From Candidatus Thorarchaeota archaeon (GTDB lineage: Archaea > Asgardarchaeota > Thorarchaeia > Thorarchaeales > Thorarchaeaceae): a stretch of DNA of 10,121 bases. Positions within the stretch are counted from its first letter, which is position 1, and each line of letters starts with the position of its first letter. The notes beneath the pieces are model-generated. The model searched no databases. It saw only the letters and a program-made list of their open reading frames with translations, and was not told the origin of the DNA. The stretch covers positions 1 to 10,121 of the forward strand of contig JAOUFI010000083.1 in the NCBI GenBank assembly GCA_029858305.1, given 5' to 3'. Of this stretch, positions 176 to 10,121 are shown piece by piece. Made by a program: the position numbers and the translations under genes.

Positions 176-370
176 GTGTCTGTAGCTTGGACTGCTGAAC
201 CGCAAGGGCTCATTGAATCTATTAAACTGGGTATGGTCGCTTCGCCCAATGATGTTGTAAAGAAGAATTCTGTGAAGCAAGTTATAGAAAGCCATCCTGA
301 GTATGCGACAGAAGCAATACAACAGCTCAAAGATTCTGGGATTGAAGTAGACAAATGGTGGGATTTCTAA
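176..370 (+). CDS. Short hypothetical protein or 3' remnant of a degraded gene
   Basis: 64-aa GTG-started ORF with protein-like composition, ending 12 nt before the 3' end of the convergent tRNA-Asn. The same frame upstream has several stops. No recognisable motif. Confidence 0.35.
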   Translation: MSVAWTAEPQGLIESIKLGMVASPNDVVKKNSVKQVIESHPEYATEAIQQLKDSGIEVDKWWDF

Positions 371-405
371 GAAGGGAGAAGGCGCCATCGGGAGGGCTCG
401 AACCT

Positions 406-435
406 TTGGCCGTACGCTACGAAGTGTAGCGCACT
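406..435 (-). other. tRNA intron 3, non-canonical position 50/51 (T stem), 30 nt
   Basis: GGUC/GGCC 4-bp central helix, 3-nt bulges GG^A and AA^A, 9-bp intron stem GTGCGCTAC-ACTTC-GTAGCGTAC. Excision restores the T stem GGAGG/CCTCC. Confidence 0.85.
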
Positions 436-442
436 CCGACCA

Positions 443-472
443 TTCGTCACGCACCACGAAATGTGATGCGTT
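443..472 (-). other. tRNA intron 2, non-canonical position 43/44, 30 nt
   Basis: Relaxed BHB: AGUU/GACG helix (one A-G mismatch), bulges GU^A and AA^U, 9-bp stem ACGCATCAC-ATTTC-GTGGTGCGT. Excision leaves a normal 5-nt variable loop TGGTC. Confidence 0.8.
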
Positions 473-478
473 ACAACT

Positions 479-506
479 GTCTGGCTCTCAACCAGCGGGT
501 GAGAGG
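479..506 (-). other. tRNA intron 1, canonical position 37/38, 28 nt
   Basis: CUGU/CCAG central helix (one mismatch), bulges UA^C and AC^A, intron stem CTCTCA/TGAGAG, closed by the anticodon stem ACAGC/GTTGT. Confidence 0.9.
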
Positions 507-537
507 TAACAGGCTGTCGCTCTACCTAGCTGAGCCA

Positions 538-588
538 CGATGGCACAATCAGGGAGTCGGCCGGGAATGCAATATTAACGTTGCTGTT
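538..588. repeat. Direct repeat copy 1 (first 7 nt of tRNA-Asn + leader + promoter)
   Basis: 46/51 identical to 2040-2090 by manual ungapped alignment. Confidence 0.9.
572..584 (-). promoter_or_regulatory. BRE/TATA promoter of tRNA-Asn (GCAACGTTAATAT)
   Basis: TTAATAT lies about 28-34 nt upstream of the mature 5' end. An identical 13-mer lies upstream of the CAT tRNA (7706-7718). Confidence 0.75.
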
Positions 589-702
589 TGGAACCAAGAG
601 TAACATCGCGCTCTTGTTAACATTGAAATAACTCAAGGACGATAATGGATGCAGGGGATATGACTGAGAAATAAAAGGCAGAATACGATTATCGTAGCGG
701 TA

Positions 703-1212
703 TTGATTGGTTTTCTAATTTTATTATCAGGAATAGTAATCTACATTTCACAACCTGGACTTTACTCCCTGTTGTATCCAGTTCCTCCCAGCGAAACACC
801 TCCAGAGGATTATGACACTGTTGAAACAATTCTAGTAGGGCCATTGCTACTGAATGCAACTGCAAATGCAACAGGAAGTATTCCGCACCAAGGACCCATT
901 ACAATCAGAATGAATCTCAAGATCAACATTACAAACACAGGGAATGAGAGCGTCACTAGTTTCCGAGCTATAAGAATGAGCGTATACAATGCTGAATCCG
1001 AATTGTTCTACACTTTCAGCTTTCAATATGATTGGAATGCCACCATTCCTTTTGGCGAAACCGTGATCTTGATTTACCAGAATCATGAAACTACGATTAT
1101 GGCTCCGTACGAGCCGTTTCACATCTATGCCAGAGTCTTGGTCACATTTGATACTGATTATGAAACAGTCCTCACAACTCCTCTCATTAACGGTATGTTT
1201 GCAATTGAGTAG
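703..1212 (+). CDS. Exported / membrane-anchored hypothetical protein, probably a beta-rich surface glycoprotein
   Basis: N-terminal hydrophobic helix, Pro-rich linker, several N-x-T/S sequons (NAT, NIT, NES). The frame is open from 664 (LRNKRQNTIIVAVLIG), so the true start may be earlier. Confidence 0.75.
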   Translation: MIGFLILLSGIVIYISQPGLYSLLYPVPPSETPPEDYDTVETILVGPLLLNATANATGSIPHQGPITIRMNLKINITNTGNESVTSFRAIRMSVYNAESELFYTFSFQYDWNATIPFGETVILIYQNHETTIMAPYEPFHIYARVLVTFDTDYETVLTTPLINGMFAIE

Positions 1213-3291: not shown

Positions 3292-4089
3292 TTACCCTCC
3301 AAACAAAAATGTAAACACATTATCCAGTGACATCATAACAAGGAATCCGACCATCAATCCCCATGTAGCTAGCCGTTCATTACCGCCTGCATGACTCTCC
3401 GGAACCATCTCATCCCCGACGACAAAGACCATTGCGCCCGCGGCAAACGCTAGTCCATAGGGCAAGAGACCTATCGCAAAGGTGACAACAGACACTCCTA
3501 AGAAACCTCCTATAGGTTCTACCAATCCAGTAATCAGGGCAAGAACCGCAGCGTACTTTCTTGAATAACCTTCACGTACAAGTGGTGCAGCTACTGCTAG
3601 TCCTTCAGGAACATTCTGCAGACCTATCGCCACAGCCACAGACATACCAACAATTGTATCCCCGCCCCCATAAGACACTCCCACAGCAAGACCCTCCGGA
3701 AAATTATGTATTGTGATGGCAATTACTAATAACCATACTCTTGCCAATCGTGAAGATGGTCCCTCAGGTCCCTTCTTGAAATGCTCATGCGGCAAGTACT
3801 TGTCCGTCAGATGGACGAATACAGCGCCAAGTGTGAACCCGAGACCAACAATGGTGAATACACCAACCCAGCCACTCTCCTTAACCACAGAATGATCAAA
3901 AGCCGGAACAAGGAGACTGAATGCAGAGGCTGCAAGCATCACTCCTGCAGCAAATCCAAGCATCAGGTCAAGTGTTCGTCTACTAAAGTCCTTCTTAACA
4001 AAGATAGGCAGAGCTCCGAGCCCCGTAGCTCCACCAGCCAAGAGACTAGCCAAGAGTCCCATAGAGAATGGATCGGAGAATAGCTGCAT
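3292..4089 (-). CDS. zupT: ZIP family divalent metal transporter (ZupT/GufA-like)
   Basis: LGFAAGVML, loop PHEH, TM4 HNFPEGLAVG, TM5 QNVPEGLAVA, GLVEP, EMVPESH. GAGGA SD. Confidence 0.95.
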   Translation of the reverse strand: MQLFSDPFSMGLLASLLAGGATGLGALPIFVKKDFSRRTLDLMLGFAAGVMLAASAFSLLVPAFDHSVVKESGWVGVFTIVGLGFTLGAVFVHLTDKYLPHEHFKKGPEGPSSRLARVWLLVIAITIHNFPEGLAVGVSYGGGDTIVGMSVAVAIGLQNVPEGLAVAAPLVREGYSRKYAAVLALITGLVEPIGGFLGVSVVTFAIGLLPYGLAFAAGAMVFVVGDEMVPESHAGGNERLATWGLMVGFLVMMSLDNVFTFLFGG

Positions 4090-4957: not shown

Positions 4958-5506
4958 CTATTCCGGCACTGATAACAGCTCTTCATATCGAACAGCAGGT
5001 TGACCATCTTTACGTCTAGAACACCAGATTCCAAGAAGGCAGATACCAGTAACCCCGACCAAAATTCCTACGAAAAATGGTGTGACTATTGATGATTGAA
5101 CATACGTGGTGATTTGGGTCTGCGTCGTACCAGTCTGATCAATATAATATATTTCAGCATGCAGATTGATCGTTGCCGCTGAGATCGTGTTCGAAAAGAT
5201 GACATACCAGTCATCGTCATAGGGAACCGTGAAATTAAGACTGTGACTAGTAGCTTCAATGTGCTCATACAACAATGAAGTCTGATTATTCAGCCACCTA
5301 CTGTAGTTGCCGCTGTCACAAATCGCGAACTCGATAGTGATATCAGCTGAAAAAGTTCCTACAATCCTCCAGCCACTGCTTGCATTTCTATGAACTGTAT
5401 AAAACTGTCCGTAGCCAAGATTCACATCTATATCGTGAGCATAAACCCCCATTGGTAACAGAAAGATACCTAACAGGACTATAGTAAGTAATATCTTCTC
5501 TCTCAT
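4958..5506 (-). CDS. Type I membrane protein (signal peptide, beta-sandwich, C-terminal TM), possibly p24/GOLD-like
   Basis: Signal peptide ending VYA, beta-rich ectodomain (FTVPYDDDWYVIFSN), sequons, single C-terminal TM and short tail. ATG 5506 is preceded by GGGGA. The GOLD call comes from recalled similarity only. Confidence 0.75.
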   Translation of the reverse strand: MREKILLTIVLLGIFLLPMGVYAHDIDVNLGYGQFYTVHRNASSGWRIVGTFSADITIEFAICDSGNYSRWLNNQTSLLYEHIEATSHSLNFTVPYDDDWYVIFSNTISAATINLHAEIYYIDQTGTTQTQITTYVQSSIVTPFFVGILVGVTGICLLGIWCSRRKDGQPAVRYEELLSVPE

Positions 5507-7590: not shown

Positions 7591-7667
7591 TGGTGGGCCC
7601 GGGGCGACTTGAACGCCCGACCTACAGGTTATGAGCCTGCTGCTCTACCAAGCTGAGCTACGGGCCC
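7591..7667 (-). tRNA. tRNA with CAT anticodon, most likely tRNA-Ile2; intronless, CCA encoded
   Basis: GGGCCCG TA GCTC AGCTTGGTA GAGC A GCAGG CTCATAA CCTGT AGGTC GGGCG TTCAAGT CGCCC CGGGCCC A CCA. The GGGCCC acceptor is the archaeal Ile type, and it lacks the A1-U72 pair and three G-C anticodon-stem pairs of initiator Met. Confidence 0.9.
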
Positions 7668-7718: not shown

Positions 7719-7879
7719 GAATGGAAACTCAAACTCGGAAGTAGAGTAAGTTACCAGTTCATCATATGCTACACTCCGATTCTAAAAAACCTACGAGTGC
7801 AATGAAATATAGCTGCAGGAATTCTCCGACTTTATATTCCCGAATCAAAACTACGAGAAAACTACTAGGGTTTGCTCAT

Positions 7880-8230
7880 ATGATTCTCATGTTCACTTCT
7901 GAGCATTGTGTGTGGTGTGATATACTCAAGAGGATGCTTAATGAAGAGTCAGAGGAGCTTGGCGGTCTCCAACCAATTTTTGAGGTAGATGTCGATAGAC
8001 ACCAACACATAACAGAAGCCTATGGGATTCTTGTTGTCCCAACTCTTGTTGCAGGTATGCAAAAGATCTCTGGGGTTCCAACGCAGTCTGACTTGAGGTC
8101 CTTTCTCCTCCACCTGAATCCTGTACCACAATCTCAGTCAGAACGTGCAGCTCCGAGTCATGTGTTACGCGAAGTACATAATTTGAGAGGATCTCAAGGG
8201 GAAGAGAAATCTGTCGTGCGAACATTGTAG
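7880..8230 (+). CDS. Thioredoxin-family protein (CVWC) with a C-terminal extension
   Basis: MILMFTSEHCVWC, FEVDVD, YGILVVPT (cis-Pro motif). TTTATAT TATA at 7831-7837 supports a start at 7880 rather than 7766. Confidence 0.88.
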   Translation: MILMFTSEHCVWCDILKRMLNEESEELGGLQPIFEVDVDRHQHITEAYGILVVPTLVAGMQKISGVPTQSDLRSFLLHLNPVPQSQSERAAPSHVLREVHNLRGSQGEEKSVVRTL

Positions 8231-8267
8231 CAATTTATAGATCTCAAACTCCTTTGTAGCCTCCTGC

Positions 8268-8280
8268 GCAATCTTAATAA
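8268..8280 (+). promoter_or_regulatory. BRE/TATA promoter of tRNA-Glu (GCAATCTTAATAA)
   Basis: Matches the GCAAnnTTAATAW pattern of the other two tRNAs; about 29-35 nt upstream of the mature 5' end. Confidence 0.7.
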
Positions 8281-8308
8281 CTACTTAGCAAAGTTCGCTG
8301 TCCAAACA

Positions 8309-8386
8309 GCCCCGATGGTGTAGTCCGGCCCAGCATCTAGGGTTTTCGACCCTATGACCCGGGTTCGAATCCCGGTCGGGGCACCA
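8309..8386 (+). tRNA. tRNA-Glu(TTC), intronless, CCA encoded
   Basis: GCCCCGA/TCGGGGC acceptor, TAGGG-TTTTCGA-CCCTA anticodon arm (TTC at 8345-8347), CCGGG-TTCGAAT-CCCGG T arm, ACCA end. Confidence 0.97.
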
Positions 8387-8609
8387 TTTTCCATTATATC
8401 ATTCAAAAAGGAGATTTTGAGATTTCCTTCACTTTCTGTAAAGATAGATAGACAAGAATCTCAATCAGTTCCCGCATGTGCTATGTGCAGAAGGGGAAAT
8501 ATAACAAGAGTAGGATAAGTAACTCATTTTTGAATCACACCAGAGAGTGATTCTAGCAACACTTTTTTGGATGAGCGACTAGGAGTTCTAAGATGAGGGC
8601 ATAGATACC

Positions 8610-9896
8610 ATGACAATTATGCTTACGTACACGAAAGAGGATGGTACACAAGAACAGGTCGAGTATGAAGAGTATGTTGAAAATATTGCACTCCATTTAC
8701 ATGGGATAGCCAGTATTGATCTGACCCCTCTTGCTACCTGCACCAGCCTGAAGGACCTCTATCTGCGTACGAATCAGCTCAAGTCGATAGACCTGAGTCC
8801 TCTGGCCACCTGCACCAGTCTACAGTACCTCAATCTGAACAGTAATCAGCTCAAGTCGATAGACCTGACCCCTCTTGCCACCTGCACCAGTCTGGGAGCC
8901 CTCGATTTGGAATATAATCAGCTCGCGTCAATAGACCTGACCCCTCTAGCCACTTGCACCAGCCTGAAGGCCCTCAATCTGGGTTCGAATCGGCTCCAGT
9001 CGATAGACTTGACTCCTCTTGCTACCTGCACCAGTCTACTGAGACTATTTCTGGACAGAAATTATCTCCAGTCGATAGATCTGACTCCTCTGGCCACCTG
9101 CACCAGACTTCAGGAACTTAATCTAGACAAGAATGAGTTTCAGTCCAAAGATGCACTATATTCATGGCTCAATCTTTATGAGTATAAGTTCCAGTTCAAC
9201 GATGCACTATATTCATGTCTCAAGCACTTGAAAGTCATATACAAAATACCAATCAATACCTACCCGTGGTCCTTTCTGTACAGAATTACTGAACTATTCG
9301 GGAAAGACTATCGCGTGCAGCAGGACATCCTCTATGCAATGGGATTCAGGAACTATGGGTTCATCGACTGCGACCTATCTGACTTCTTTCTCTCCATCCC
9401 TGCAGACACTCCTATTGATCTGGCTCGTGAGCAGGTTAGAGATAAACTGCTGGAGGATGTCGTTCAAGCCATTGACCAAGGACGAACAACAACAGGTCTC
9501 AATGTTGAAGAGATGAGCGCTCAGCACGTGGAGATAGCAGAGAGGTCTCAACGAATCAGCGATCTTCGAAAAGCAGAGATGAAACGAGTTTCTGTCGAAG
9601 TGAGTCGACCTAGGGGAACTAAGAGAACTAAGGAGGTGTACCTATGGGAACTATGGTTCACCGCCCATGGCTATGAAGTCCTGACCGCTCTTGAGATGGG
9701 CTACAGTACTGGTCTCAAAAGTAAACGTTTTGAAGAAGTCAAAAAAGCCTTCAAAGAGTTGGGATTCAAGCTGAAGACTGGCAAGAGATCAGGGGTAGAG
9801 ATGAGTGAGGAATTGAAACAGGCTATCTGGTGGATTATTGAGCACAAAGGACTCTCGTGGGAAATTCCTAATAGATGGGTCGGTCATTTACGATAG
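8610..9896 (+). CDS. Leucine-rich repeat protein with a helical C-terminal domain
   Basis: Six 24-aa repeats IDLTPLATCTSLxxLxLxxNxLxS; GAGGG SD. The C-terminal region (YPWSFL, YGFIDCDL, LWFTAHG) resembles the Thorarchaeota LRR family as I recall it. Confidence 0.95.
   Translation: MTIMLTYTKEDGTQEQVEYEEYVENIALHLHGIASIDLTPLATCTSLKDLYLRTNQLKSIDLSPLATCTSLQYLNLNSNQLKSIDLTPLATCTSLGALDLEYNQLASIDLTPLATCTSLKALNLGSNRLQSIDLTPLATCTSLLRLFLDRNYLQSIDLTPLATCTRLQELNLDKNEFQSKDALYSWLNLYEYKFQFNDALYSCLKHLKVIYKIPINTYPWSFLYRITELFGKDYRVQQDILYAMGFRNYGFIDCDLSDFFLSIPADTPIDLAREQVRDKLLEDVVQAIDQGRTTTGLNVEEMSAQHVEIAERSQRISDLRKAEMKRVSVEVSRPRGTKRTKEVYLWELWFTAHGYEVLTALEMGYSTGLKSKRFEEVKKAFKELGFKLKTGKRSGVEMSEELKQAIWWIIEHKGLSWEIPNRWVGHLR
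8715..9146 (+). repeat. 6 x 72-bp tandem repeat encoding the LRR units
   Basis: GACCTG at 8790 and 8862 shows the 72-nt period. Constant blocks are near-identical, separated by divergent codons. Confidence 0.95.
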
Positions 9897-9937
9897 TCGA
9901 CCCTATGACCCGGGTTCGAATCCCGGTCGGGGCACCA
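9897..9937 (+). repeat. tRNA-Glu 3'-half duplicate (attR-like)
   Basis: 41/41 identical to 8346-8386; lacks the tRNA 5' half. Confidence 0.97.
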
Positions 9938-9957
9938 CCTTTTCCAGACTTGTTTTA

Positions 9958-10121
9958 CTAATTAAGCGACAAACGCATATTGAAATTTGGGGAGCTATAG
10001 GAGTGCGTGAGGGCTCCTGAAGAGATGATGTCAATTGTGTTTCGCGCATAATCTCGTATGTTCTCTTCACTAATTCCTCCAGAAACCTCGAGAATGACTT
10101 TCTTTCGGAGACCTTCATTCT
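9958..10121 (-). CDS. nadC: Quinolinate phosphoribosyltransferase (nicotinate-nucleotide diphosphorylase), 3' end only
   Basis: Manual translation from 10119: NEGLRKKVILEVSGGISEENIRDYARNTIDIISSGALTHSYSSPNFNMRLSLN*. LEvSGGI and ISsGALTHS are NadC C-terminal motifs. The gene runs off the window edge and is absent from the ORF track. Confidence 0.9.
   Translation of the reverse strand, partial: NEGLRKKVILEVSGGISEENIRDYARNTIDIISSGALTHSYSSPNFNMRLSLN

Follow-up and report, generated by a model that had tools for sequence, protein, structure and literature searches.

The window, that is, the whole stretch of 10,121 nucleotides that was analysed, constitutes the entire contig C113 of a Candidatus Thorarchaeota assembly and carries, between an intact tRNA-Glu(UUC) gene and the 3' end of nadC, a single gene for a leucine-rich-repeat (LRR) protein that is enclosed by two copies of a direct repeat (Table 1). 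The contig ends 184 nt past the second copy. The original prediction described a perfect 41-bp duplication of the 3' half of the tRNA from the anticodon onwards, a distal copy that begins directly after the TAG stop codon of the enclosed gene, and a leader of about 220 bp plus one LRR gene between the copies; all of this anatomy was recovered. An exact-string search returned the identical 41-mer twice in the window at a spacing of 1551 nt, the leader measures 223 nt and the ORF encodes 428 aa. The anticodon ttc lies at gene position 37 of the tRNA, corresponding to 8345-8347 (ARAGORN), and a gapped extension of the repeat adds TTTTCCA after a 2-nt indel, yielding 96% identity over 50 columns (8346-8393 versus 9897-9946). 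Across the 3.04-Mb assembly three occurrences of the 41-mer were found, namely the two window copies and one in the tRNA of a second contig, C43; chance is no issue.

Table 1. Features of the window, with positions counted from its first nucleotide.
Feature	Position	Strand	Basis
Second, unrelated 51-bp direct repeat (partner 2040-2090, 90%)	538..588	+	self-blast
tRNA-Met (CAT), left neighbour	7591..7667	-	ARAGORN; Rfam tRNA 69.4 bits
Thioredoxin-like gene, left flank	7766..8230	+	Pfam Thioredoxin E = 9.1e-06; syntenic in relatives
Intact tRNA-Glu(UUC), encoded CCA, attL side	8309..8386	+	ARAGORN; Rfam tRNA 59 bits
Direct repeat copy 1, tRNA 3' part from second anticodon base to CCA	8346..8386	+	repeat and exact-string search
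Cassette leader, 223 nt	8387..8609	+	homology to family upstream regions
Cargo LRR gene, 428 aa, stop TAG at 9894-9896	8610..9896	+	ORF list, Pfam
72-nt periodic LRR-coding repeats within cargo gene	8715..9146	+	four copies, 216-nt reference, 72-nt step
Direct repeat copy 2, orphan tRNA-Glu 3' half, attR side	9897..9937	+	starts at base after TAG
nadC 3' end (quinolinate phosphoribosyltransferase), right flank, cut by contig end	9958..10121	-	ORF list; C43 match

The part of the leader proximal to the gene (8492-8609) is homologous to the region upstream of a member of the same family in another genome, where window positions 8492-8791 are matched at 79% identity (G010:C154). In addition, the leader holds the conserved motif of the family and a GAGGG directly before the ATG, as became apparent from the upstream regions of seven family loci. 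Apart from the LRR gene itself, no ORF of at least 60 aa was found between the repeat copies outside the span of the cargo gene, and apart from the two tRNAs Rfam returned for the window, leader included, a single match, which stayed below threshold. The composition profile of the cassette is devoid of an evident anomaly. On the left flank, the thioredoxin-like gene is given as its longest ORF, and an internal ATG may be its true start. Further upstream, the unrelated second repeat and its partner bracket three ORFs, a methyltransferase among them, and a minus-strand tRNA suspected near 430-545 was confirmed by neither ARAGORN nor Rfam.

The cargo protein and its family

In the cargo protein, an LRR domain at the N-terminus is followed by a conserved C-terminal domain of about 230 aa, whose predicted fold is without known match. 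Pfam LRR_8 covers residues 46-105 (E = 7e-18, 64.6 bits, cut-off 27) and LRR_4 scores 60.5 bits, while the structure model exceeds a pLDDT of 90 over residues 1-140 and retrieves LRR structures as top Foldseek matches (E about 1e-10). By both its Pfam matches and its modelled solenoid fold, the cargo is a leucine-rich-repeat protein. For the C-terminal domain, which AlphaFold models at a pLDDT of 81, Pfam returned nothing above cut-off and structural relatives were found neither by Foldseek (best E = 1.5) nor by VIA-align (best Z = 4.3). The idea that the cargo protein might itself be a recombinase received no support from these searches: a Pfam RRXRR match stayed below threshold (E = 0.0043, 17.4 bits, cut-off 25), a PDB profile search reached E = 0.077 at best and the protein atlas held no usable match; the protein may still be an enzyme of a novel type.

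The expectation that LRR paralogs are generally followed by tRNA halves was not borne out. Two of the nine LRR ORFs in the genome are flanked by repeats, and both encode the conserved C-terminal domain; the tRNA half flanks the one in the window, while the other, which is the sole full paralog of the cargo gene (C26), lies between two copies of a rubredoxin 3' end. Throughout the family defined by LRR and C-terminal domain, flanking repeats score above all 306 mismatched controls at four of 18 non-redundant loci, and the flanking repeat of L050/L051 lies outside the 900-nt frame used. Flanking repeats are consequently not a property of every family member, as 13 of the 18 loci are devoid of them. 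An 18-bp repeat in L045/L046/L048, considered as a candidate att site, turned out to be the family leader motif in tandem paralogs.

The tRNA-Glu/nadC interval in relatives and other samples

A predicted empty site, in which the tRNA would lie about 20 bp from nadC, exists within the same assembly. Contig C43 carries the order thioredoxin, tRNA-Glu, 20 nt and nadC at 98-99% identity to the window (C43:1-308 versus 8088-8393, 98%; C43:259-480 versus 9897-10118, 99%). It features a single tRNA, which is identical to that of the window in 78 of 78 positions and is followed after 20 nt by the end of nadC, an ORF at 320-1177 (-) with the Pfam domains QRPTase_C (4.5e-58) and QRPTase_N. Judged by match coordinates, 10 of the other 24 genus members have nadC directly next to the tRNA, and for the nearest relative (G007) the empty site was confirmed base by base. 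The left neighbourhood is likewise maintained, with a tRNA-Met left of the thioredoxin gene in six of seven relatives' loci inspected and a call of tRNA-Val in the remaining one (G002). Filled and empty alleles are hence both visible, and the LRR gene is present in part of the natural population and absent from the rest. The empty allele could, on the other hand, represent a never-occupied ancestral state, in which case reversibility of the cassette would not be demonstrated.

The original prediction had also proposed to look for different or tandem inserts in this interval in relatives, and additional tRNA-Glu 3' fragments were indeed seen there in three of them (G022, G002 and G009). Two of these loci were inspected in full, and there the fragments bound other one-gene inserts, two units in each case: in G022 the tRNA is followed by a 99-aa ORF, a 31-nt fragment (100%), a 116-aa ORF and a further fragment, and in G002 by a 295-aa ORF, a fragment, a homolog of the 99-aa ORF and again a fragment. 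The newer insert of G002 adjoins the tRNA, and the distal fragments are more decayed. The 99-aa cassettes of the two genomes are 76% identical, compared with 79% for the flank; this gives no sign of transfer between them, and by their sequences the cassettes look vertically inherited rather than recently mobile. An integrase-containing element at this position, which the original prediction had named as one of the findings that would speak against it, was seen in none of the relatives examined: neither an integrase nor a larger element occurs there in any of the 16 genomes of the genus for which the site is resolved.

Contigs of individual sequencing runs, outside the MAG, cover parts of the insert. 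These contigs were built with k=31 and collapse the 41-bp repeat; no skip joint over the cassette, back joint or circular form appeared among them, and the right junction as well as such joints lie beyond their resolution. In run X3, a 440-nt contig bridges the left junction (8115-8554) without differences, taking in the complete tRNA, flanking sequence to its left and 168 nt of leader, and in run X1 a 1570-nt contig covers 8357-9926. Run X5 yields a copy of 8844-9937 that is about 7% diverged (61 other letters, 20 gaps) and nevertheless ends in the tRNA half, featuring the same junction between gene and tRNA half in another sample; neither flank is covered at 90% likeness in this run, which is uninformative and is not taken to indicate horizontal transfer. 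Moreover, the tail of a related protein (P0004, 85% identical), ...SIVDP, would, as judged from the protein sequence, be consistent with reading on into this tRNA half in a different frame. Read depths in X1 (9.8 for the cassette contig versus 14.9-24.8 for flank contigs) and X2 (2.3-4.4 for identical cassette pieces versus 17.6-25 for SNP-bearing flanks) fit a mixed population, yet they are per-contig means and not copy numbers and are not counted as evidence. The zero mismatches between the repeat copies had been taken as a mark of recent insertion; this argument is weak, since a tRNA half is conserved anyway and the diverged X5 copy shares the junction.

Gene 3' ends as targets and the probable route of insertion

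Contrary to the original prediction, the geometry of the tRNA-Glu insert is not specific to LRR genes, as non-LRR genes display it at the tail of an mvhD-like gene, at the 16S rRNA trailer and at other tRNAs. Within one genome, the targets encompass the genes of tRNA-Glu, Tyr, Leu, Ser, Ala and Gly, the 16S trailer, and the mvhD-like and rubredoxin tails. The 16S rRNA trailer in the genome of the window (G000) bears an array of six intervals between seven repeat copies. The duplicated tail of the mvhD-like gene, a name given from its sequence, brackets an MFS gene; in G000 the copy on the working gene ends in NPIRM-stop, while the displaced distal copy ends in NPIRL-stop, which is also the ending in four of four relatives inspected. 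These endings support the arrival of a replacement end with the insert. Repeat lengths range from 24 to 218 nt, and in C5 the repeat extends 190 nt past the tRNA end. In several independent inserts the distal repeat starts 0-3 nt from the stop codon of the cargo; among 21 filtered repeat pairs the stop of the enclosed ORF lies at most 1 nt from a repeat copy in four, to which L047 from another genome adds one, whereas the gap amounts to +93 nt in L003 and to 11-75 nt in other pairs. Where repeat copies differ, the differences are nearly all synonymous, as in L040 (about 20 in about 93 nt, counted from the sequences) and C177 (four of four). The window insert appears to be one of many very small gene cassettes attached to gene 3' ends in this group.

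The absence of an integrase from the single-gene unit, part of the original prediction, extends from the unit to the whole bin, and a stand-alone tyrosine recombinase, for which the MAG was to be searched, was not found either. Searches of G000 for tyrosine and serine recombinases, Y1 and DDE transposases and reverse transcriptases were without result (PF00589, PF16795, PF00239, PF01797, PF00078 and PF01609, no match at E <= 0.01); the MAG is 89% complete, which limits the absence of a recombinase. Contigs of mobile elements are often left out of bins. PF00589 is likewise unmatched in G002, G022 and G009. Tyrosine recombinases do exceed the Pfam cut-off in eight of 28 genus genomes, and the ten integrase loci examined in the genus contain neither a tRNA nor a tRNA fragment; a recombinase acting on the tRNA-Glu half was identified in none of the places searched.

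The insert is probably best understood as a non-autonomous, strain-variable one-gene cassette that entered by single-crossover (Campbell-type) recombination. Accordingly read, its 1,551-bp unit would consist of one tRNA-Glu 3' half, the 223-nt leader with putative expression signals of its own and the LRR gene. We infer that incoming DNA bearing a copy of the tRNA-Glu 3' half would recombine with the chromosomal tRNA-Glu(UUC) gene, a crossover that would regenerate the tRNA on the left and put the displaced half at the right end. A further crossover, between the two 41-bp copies, could excise the unit again, which would explain the coexistence of filled and empty alleles. The enzyme may be either a site-specific recombinase supplied in trans or the host machinery of homologous recombination. 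A tyrosine recombinase acting in trans had been favoured in the original prediction; since the targets are numerous and varied and no recombinase was found, homologous recombination is an equally good candidate. Taken together, the original interpretation is partly supported, namely in its anatomy, its empty site and the recurrence of inserts at the site; the link between LRR genes and tRNA halves is not upheld, and a tyrosine recombinase in trans and a recent event stay conjectural. Several points run against the single-crossover reading itself: no circular or excised form was seen, no recombinase acting on the tRNA half was identified, the start of the repeat 0-3 nt from the stop codon is left unexplained by it, and the 99-aa cassette of G022 and G002 appears to have been inherited vertically.

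Repeats reaching from the anticodon or from the T-arm to the 3' end of a tRNA gene are classical footprints of tRNA-targeting integrases. The insert might be the decayed remnant of a larger element that had entered tRNA-Glu with its own tyrosine integrase and was reduced by deletions to a cargo gene between two att sites, a CIME (cis-mobilizable element) in the bacterial sense that would be immobile save for loss via its repeats. The tRNA-derived repeat matches such a footprint, tyrosine recombinases do occur in the genus, the 99-aa cassette has the appearance of vertical descent, and CIMEs are by definition elements that retain attL and attR after losing the genes for integration and transfer (PMC5704250). 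Nevertheless, this origin is rather doubtful. All 16 resolved sites in the genus are free of an integrase or larger element, and the four genomes with inserts or fragments at the site (G000, G002, G022, G009) are without any PF00589 match. Moreover, the deletions would have had to stop exactly at the cargo stop codon, repeatedly and in independent inserts elsewhere, and the diverged copy in X5 keeps the junction between gene and tRNA half.

Still less probable is a recombinase-independent process that is tied to gene 3' ends, and possibly to transcripts, in which template switching during replication, or a step guided or templated by RNA, would add a promoter-plus-ORF unit, duplicate the last 25-220 nt of the target gene and terminate at the cargo stop. 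Such a process would be in line with the many unrelated targets within one genome, with the variable repeat lengths, including the extension beyond the tRNA in C5, and with the ORF stops that lie within 1 nt of a repeat. It is at odds with the missing reverse transcriptase in G000 and with the stop-codon rule, which is not universal. It is further opposed by the nearly exclusively synonymous differences between repeat copies in L040 and C177, which are better accommodated by a homologous end imported from another lineage than by duplication in situ followed by decay. Finally, that the 41-bp repeat merely led the assembler to thread an unrelated LRR contig between tRNA and nadC is highly improbable, for although the contig stops shortly past the second copy, C43 covers the same flanks and the right junction exceeds the resolution of the k=31 contigs, an independent run (X3) bridges the left flank, tRNA and leader with zero differences, the junction of LRR-gene end and tRNA half recurs in X1 and, diverged, in X5, and the P0004 tail would suit reading on into the tRNA half.

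Extending the single-crossover reading to the genus, one may tentatively propose an integrase-free cassette system in which one-gene units, each equipped with its own promoter and a copy of the conserved 3' end of a housekeeping gene, such as a tRNA half, the 16S trailer or the mvhD-like or rubredoxin tail, pop in and out at that gene, build arrays and swap accessory genes between strains and species, with the cargo stop set against the repeat. In this proposal the LRR cassette would count as a member that is polymorphic at present, and the accessory genes concerned would comprise LRR proteins, transporters, toxin-antitoxin-like pairs and small membrane proteins.

Relation to known systems

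Interest in Asgard archaea stems from their position as the closest prokaryotic relatives of eukaryotes, and how their accessory genes move is little known. The locus offers a clear example in this regard: both alleles can be seen, the gene is enclosed by a duplicated tRNA half, and no recombinase is in sight. If one mechanism underlies the inserts, it would provide a route of cassette exchange that is functionally integron-like and anchored on conserved gene ends, and it would help to explain the expansion of variable LRR families in these genomes; if the inserts are decayed islands, they amount to ordinary genome archaeology. Literature searching, which was not designed to prove absence, turned up no account of Thorarchaeota cassettes tied to tRNA halves or gene tails. 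Among known kinds, the locus comes closest to CIMEs, tRNA islands and integron cassettes.

The structure of the window insert is the one produced by pop-in/pop-out procedures in archaeal laboratory genetics, where single-crossover insertion duplicates a homologous segment on both sides and recombination between the copies removes the insert. To our knowledge, pop-in/pop-out has not been described as a natural cassette system, and as a model for the present locus it does not explain where circles with a tRNA half would come from. Islands and proviruses integrated into tRNA genes by tyrosine recombinases share the repeat of the tRNA 3' part, the regenerated tRNA and the empty site in relatives, and where such islands accrete in tandem, new inserts likewise lie beside the tRNA and older ones distally. 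In contrast to them, the window unit, the sites of the examined relatives and the whole bin are without an integrase, and the inserts measure 0.4-1.6 kb and hold one gene instead of extending over several kb or more.

The dif modules of Acinetobacter plasmids, which according to PMC6449649 and PMC12907356 are flanked by 28-bp Xer sites and are thought to be moved by XerC/XerD of the host, resemble the present cassettes in their small size, their one or few genes and the lack of a recombinase of their own. They differ in that the bin contains neither an Xer-type protein nor a dif-like site and in that the repeats are gene 3' ends. CIMEs are known from streptococcal ICE families and are flanked by attL and attR, with their integration and transfer genes lost (PMC5704250). 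By definition they derive from an ICE or IME, and it is accretion with a live element that moves them. The window unit likewise keeps attL and attR without integration and transfer genes; unlike CIMEs, it resides in an archaeal host, is accompanied by neither a parent element nor a helper among the sequences searched, and shows a geometry that recurs at many targets.

In Asgard archaea, an enrichment of integron gene cassettes and CALINs has been reported (PMC9668308). As in the present inserts, single-ORF units are arranged in arrays that are often devoid of an integrase, and a site-like repeat abuts or overlaps the end of each ORF. Unlike the attC hairpin, however, the repeat described here, as judged by reading the sequence, duplicates the 3' end of the resident gene next to it, be it a tRNA half, a gene tail or the rRNA trailer; IntI, attI and Pc were not found (PF00589 being absent from G000, G002, G022 and G009), a tRNA gene stands at the head of the array, and the LRR cassette possesses a conserved leader of its own. 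Arrays such as that of C205 in G000 (128.8-137.7 kb) may already be among the CALINs counted in the survey of PMC9668308.

Anatomy of the filled locus and its empty allele

The window constitutes the entire contig C113 of the MAG G000 (205 contigs, 3.04 Mb, 88.9% complete, 42.8% G+C), and relatives of its proteins carry the name Candidatus Thorarchaeota in their sources. As described in the original prediction, a perfect duplication of the tRNA-Glu 3' half encloses a leader and one LRR gene, with zero mismatches between the copies, and the second copy indeed starts directly behind the TAG of this gene. Beside the LRR gene, the ORF listing shows no other notable ORF inside the cassette; the cargo protein features an N-terminal LRR domain (Pfam LRR_8, E = 7e-18). 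Elsewhere in the window, a 51-bp direct repeat (90%; 538-588 and 2040-2090) encloses ORFs 703-1212 and 1237-1446 as well as a methyltransferase gene (1456-2019), the stop of which lies 20 nt ahead of the second repeat copy.

Features of the tRNA-Glu/nadC locus in the window
Feature	Position	Strand	Remarks
tRNA-Glu	8309-8386	+	anticodon TTC at 8345-8347; ARAGORN and Rfam concordant
Direct repeat copy 1	8346-8386	+	final 41 bases of tRNA-Glu
Leader	between tRNA-Glu and LRR gene		223 nt
LRR gene	8610-9896	+	ends in TAG; repeat copy 2 from the very next base
Direct repeat copy 2	9897-9937	+	41/41 match to copy 1; spacing 1551
nadC	right flank, convergent	-	both QRPTase domains in the full gene on contig C43 of G000

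The empty site that had been predicted is present in the same assembly as well as in relatives. A third copy of the 41-mer in G000 resides on the 3.7-kb contig C43, where positions 1-308 correspond to window 8088-8393 at 98% and positions 259-480 to 9897-10118 at 99%, yielding a single intact tRNA-Glu with the nadC end 20 nt downstream. Since C43 is empty and the window filled, the bin comprises the two alleles, contributed by a pair of closely related strains.

The possibility that the filled locus is an assembly artefact is unlikely in view of four sequencing runs, of which the k=31 contigs were compared, and of protein P0004, taken together. In X3, a 440-nt contig spans 8115-8554 with zero differences and takes in the left flank, the entire tRNA and the leader; the likely source run, X1, holds a 1570-nt contig equal to 8357-9926, and X2 three identical cassette pieces. 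The 1122-nt contig of X5 over 8844-9937 (61 differences, 20 gaps) reads as a diverged copy of the LRR gene, with the tRNA half likewise at its end. This agrees with P0004 (85% identical), the tail of which, ...RWVGRSFSIVDP, looks, as judged from the protein sequence, like translation continuing past the end of the window gene into the tRNA half in a different frame.

The tRNA-Glu/nadC interval in related genomes

The tRNA-Glu/nadC site is a recurrent landing place for inserts. The search for the locus took in 24 further genomes of the genus; in eight of them, the site could not be resolved. By match coordinates, the tRNA adjoins nadC in ten (G001, G003, G006, G007, G008, G012, G013, G015, G016 and G024), including the closest relative, G007 (84% flank identity), whose empty site was checked base by base. 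Additional tRNA-Glu 3' fragments occur at the site in three genomes (G002, G009, G022), while three others (G005, G011, G014) feature added genes without a detectable fragment. Absent, different and tandem small units, for all of which the original prediction proposed to check relatives, are seen, the last two in G022 and G002. In G022, the tRNA is followed by a 99-aa membrane-protein ORF, a 31-nt fragment identical to the tRNA 3' end and touched by the TAG of this ORF, a 116-aa ORF on the opposite strand, a fragment in a more decayed state, a block of three genes and nadC. The order in G002 is tRNA, 295-aa zinc-ribbon ORF, fragment (93.5%), homolog of the 99-aa ORF and a second fragment (88%), which the TAA of the homolog touches. 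Because the 99-aa unit is 76% identical between both genomes, compared with 79% for their flank, it appears to be old, and the tRNA-adjacent unit of G002 to have been gained later. The repeat start within the tRNA varies from position 38 in the window to ~48 in the 99-aa unit and ~55 in other units.

In G009 (L025:1286-1421) and G014 (L026:980-1087), the tRNA-Glu gene is overlooked or misnamed by ARAGORN; additional sequence interrupts it behind the anticodon arm and again within the T arm, and may represent non-canonical introns.

The cargo family and repeats at other gene ends

The C-terminal domain of the cargo (~230 residues) belongs to no Pfam family; its predicted structure is confident (pLDDT 81, pTM 0.78) and found no match among solved structures. 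It defines a small family of 14 clusters among 5.8 billion proteins, each LRR-bearing or partial; a further 7 loci come from species genomes and 18 from metagenomes. The LRR unit count differs among members, the leader immediately 5' of the ATG is conserved family-wide, and some contigs (L045, L044, L049, L039) hold two to four copies, mostly in one orientation, with an in-frame stop in the copy at L049:771-1385.

Within G000, the proposed tie of LRR paralogs to tRNA halves did not extend beyond the window: flanking repeats occur in two of its nine LRR ORFs, solely those with the C-terminal domain of the cargo, and the second involves a rubredoxin tail. This paralog (C26:12609-14561, minus strand, locus L001; 565 aa) comes after a rubredoxin gene (Pfam 6.6e-25) and is enclosed by an 86-bp direct repeat (92%) comprising the last 31 nt of that gene plus a terminator hairpin, with the distal copy beginning at the TAG of the paralog. 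Among 18 non-redundant family loci, four (window, C26, L003, L047) have repeats stronger than all 306 mismatched controls; that of L003 covers 166 columns at 78% and begins 93 nt past the stop, that of L047 (106 bp) begins within the TAG. In L050/L051, the family ORF reads into a rubredoxin-like tail.

Unrelated single genes on the metagenome contig L047 (2250-8290) are set apart by a 23-codon ORF, present 7 times in 6 kb and equipped with a terminator hairpin and a Shine-Dalgarno-like site. Its copies differ mostly by synonymous changes, and the most similar two (93%) are those flanking the LRR family gene. At L040 (the L003 locus), both flanking repeats (3637-3789 and 5140-5325) end in the same 31-aa peptide plus stop, differ by ~20 synonymous changes in our own count and lie outside any long ORF. 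The pair represents either small genes in their own right or gene tails that were imported.

Genome-wide, G000 contains 84 pairs of short-range direct repeats, and in four of the 21 examined after filtering the stop of the enclosed ORF lies ≤1 nt from a repeat copy. One of these four, at C177:2658-4186 (L058), is an MFS-transporter gene enclosed by a 39-bp tail copy derived from the upstream gene, which was termed mvhD-like by eye from its sequence. Every difference between these tails is synonymous; NPIRM* closes the working gene, and NPIRL* the displaced copy as well as the gene in four of four relatives read. Among the relatives (loci L060, L062, L064), G001, G012 and G016 carry other small units with tail copies at this site, namely a RHH/PIN-like pair, by our own reading, and a zinc-ribbon ORF. 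Fragments of the 3' end likewise lie 0.2-3.5 kb downstream of tRNA-Tyr, Leu, Ser, Ala and Gly. Behind tRNA-Tyr at C5:5771-7144, the tRNA 3' end recurs in two copies that enclose a 236-aa ORF, one repeat (218 bp, 98.6%) extending 190 nt past the tRNA end. At C205:128849-137705, seven copies of a ~90-nt repeat, spaced 0.8-2 kb apart, delimit six intervals in 9 kb, in which unrelated genes point either way. The trailer immediately 3' of the 16S rRNA gene (end at 137705, minus strand) constitutes this repeat, whose fold is the more stable one on the rRNA strand; the six intervals hence seem attached to the 3' end of the 16S gene. C34:45909-49984 holds four tandem tRNA-Arg-like genes, one called Val(AAC), with small membrane-protein ORFs between them and partly repeated flanks.

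Possible routes of insertion and relation to known systems

An incoming circle with its own copy of the target 3' end would recombine with the target by a single crossover, which would regenerate the target and push its native end to the distal side. The observed structure is what such a crossover would give, and the mvhD-like case has exactly this polarity, the displaced copy being the native ending. In coding tails, the repeat copies differ almost exclusively by synonymous changes, which favours a homologous end evolved as a gene elsewhere over duplication in situ followed by decay.

One candidate for this crossover is host homologous recombination. In its favour are the many targets that bear no relation to one another, repeat lengths that vary (24-218 nt), units that are all tiny, and the lack of any recombinase. 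Dedicated integrases provided in trans are the other candidate, favoured by repeats at classical tRNA sublocations. Under neither route is it explained why the stop codon of the cargo is so often in contact with the repeat. The stand-alone tyrosine recombinase sought under the original prediction did not emerge, and neither did a serine recombinase, a Y1 or DDE transposase or a reverse transcriptase: PF00589, PF16795, PF00239, PF01797, PF00078 and PF01609 gave zero matches at E ≤ 0.01 in the 88.9% complete G000 bin, and the TnpB zinc-ribbon model only a sub-threshold match. As the bin is incomplete, a recombinase gene may have been missed. PF00589 exceeded the cut-off in 8 of 28 genus genomes, G000, G002, G022 and G009 not being among them, and the 10 integrase loci fetched from the genus contained no tRNA fragments. 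This Phage_integrase model, which covers XerA-type dimer resolvases as well, failed to match at E ≤ 0.01 in 19 of the 28, compared with matches in 14 of 14 control genomes.

In its workings, the cassette resembles a tRNA-integrated island cut down to a single gene, and it corresponds to the descriptive definition of a CIME as given in PMC5704250, but without a known parent element. It is also similar to integron cassettes and integrase-less attC clusters, the latter being enriched in Asgard archaea according to PMC9668308, but differs in that its repeat copies the end of a resident gene and its head is a tRNA. The tiny excising elements known from another Asgard lineage use an 11-bp motif, in integrase-bearing hosts. 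We file the cassette under an already known kind, as a variant that is itself new; that it belongs to a distinct integrase-free cassette system is less likely than not, yet has a real chance.
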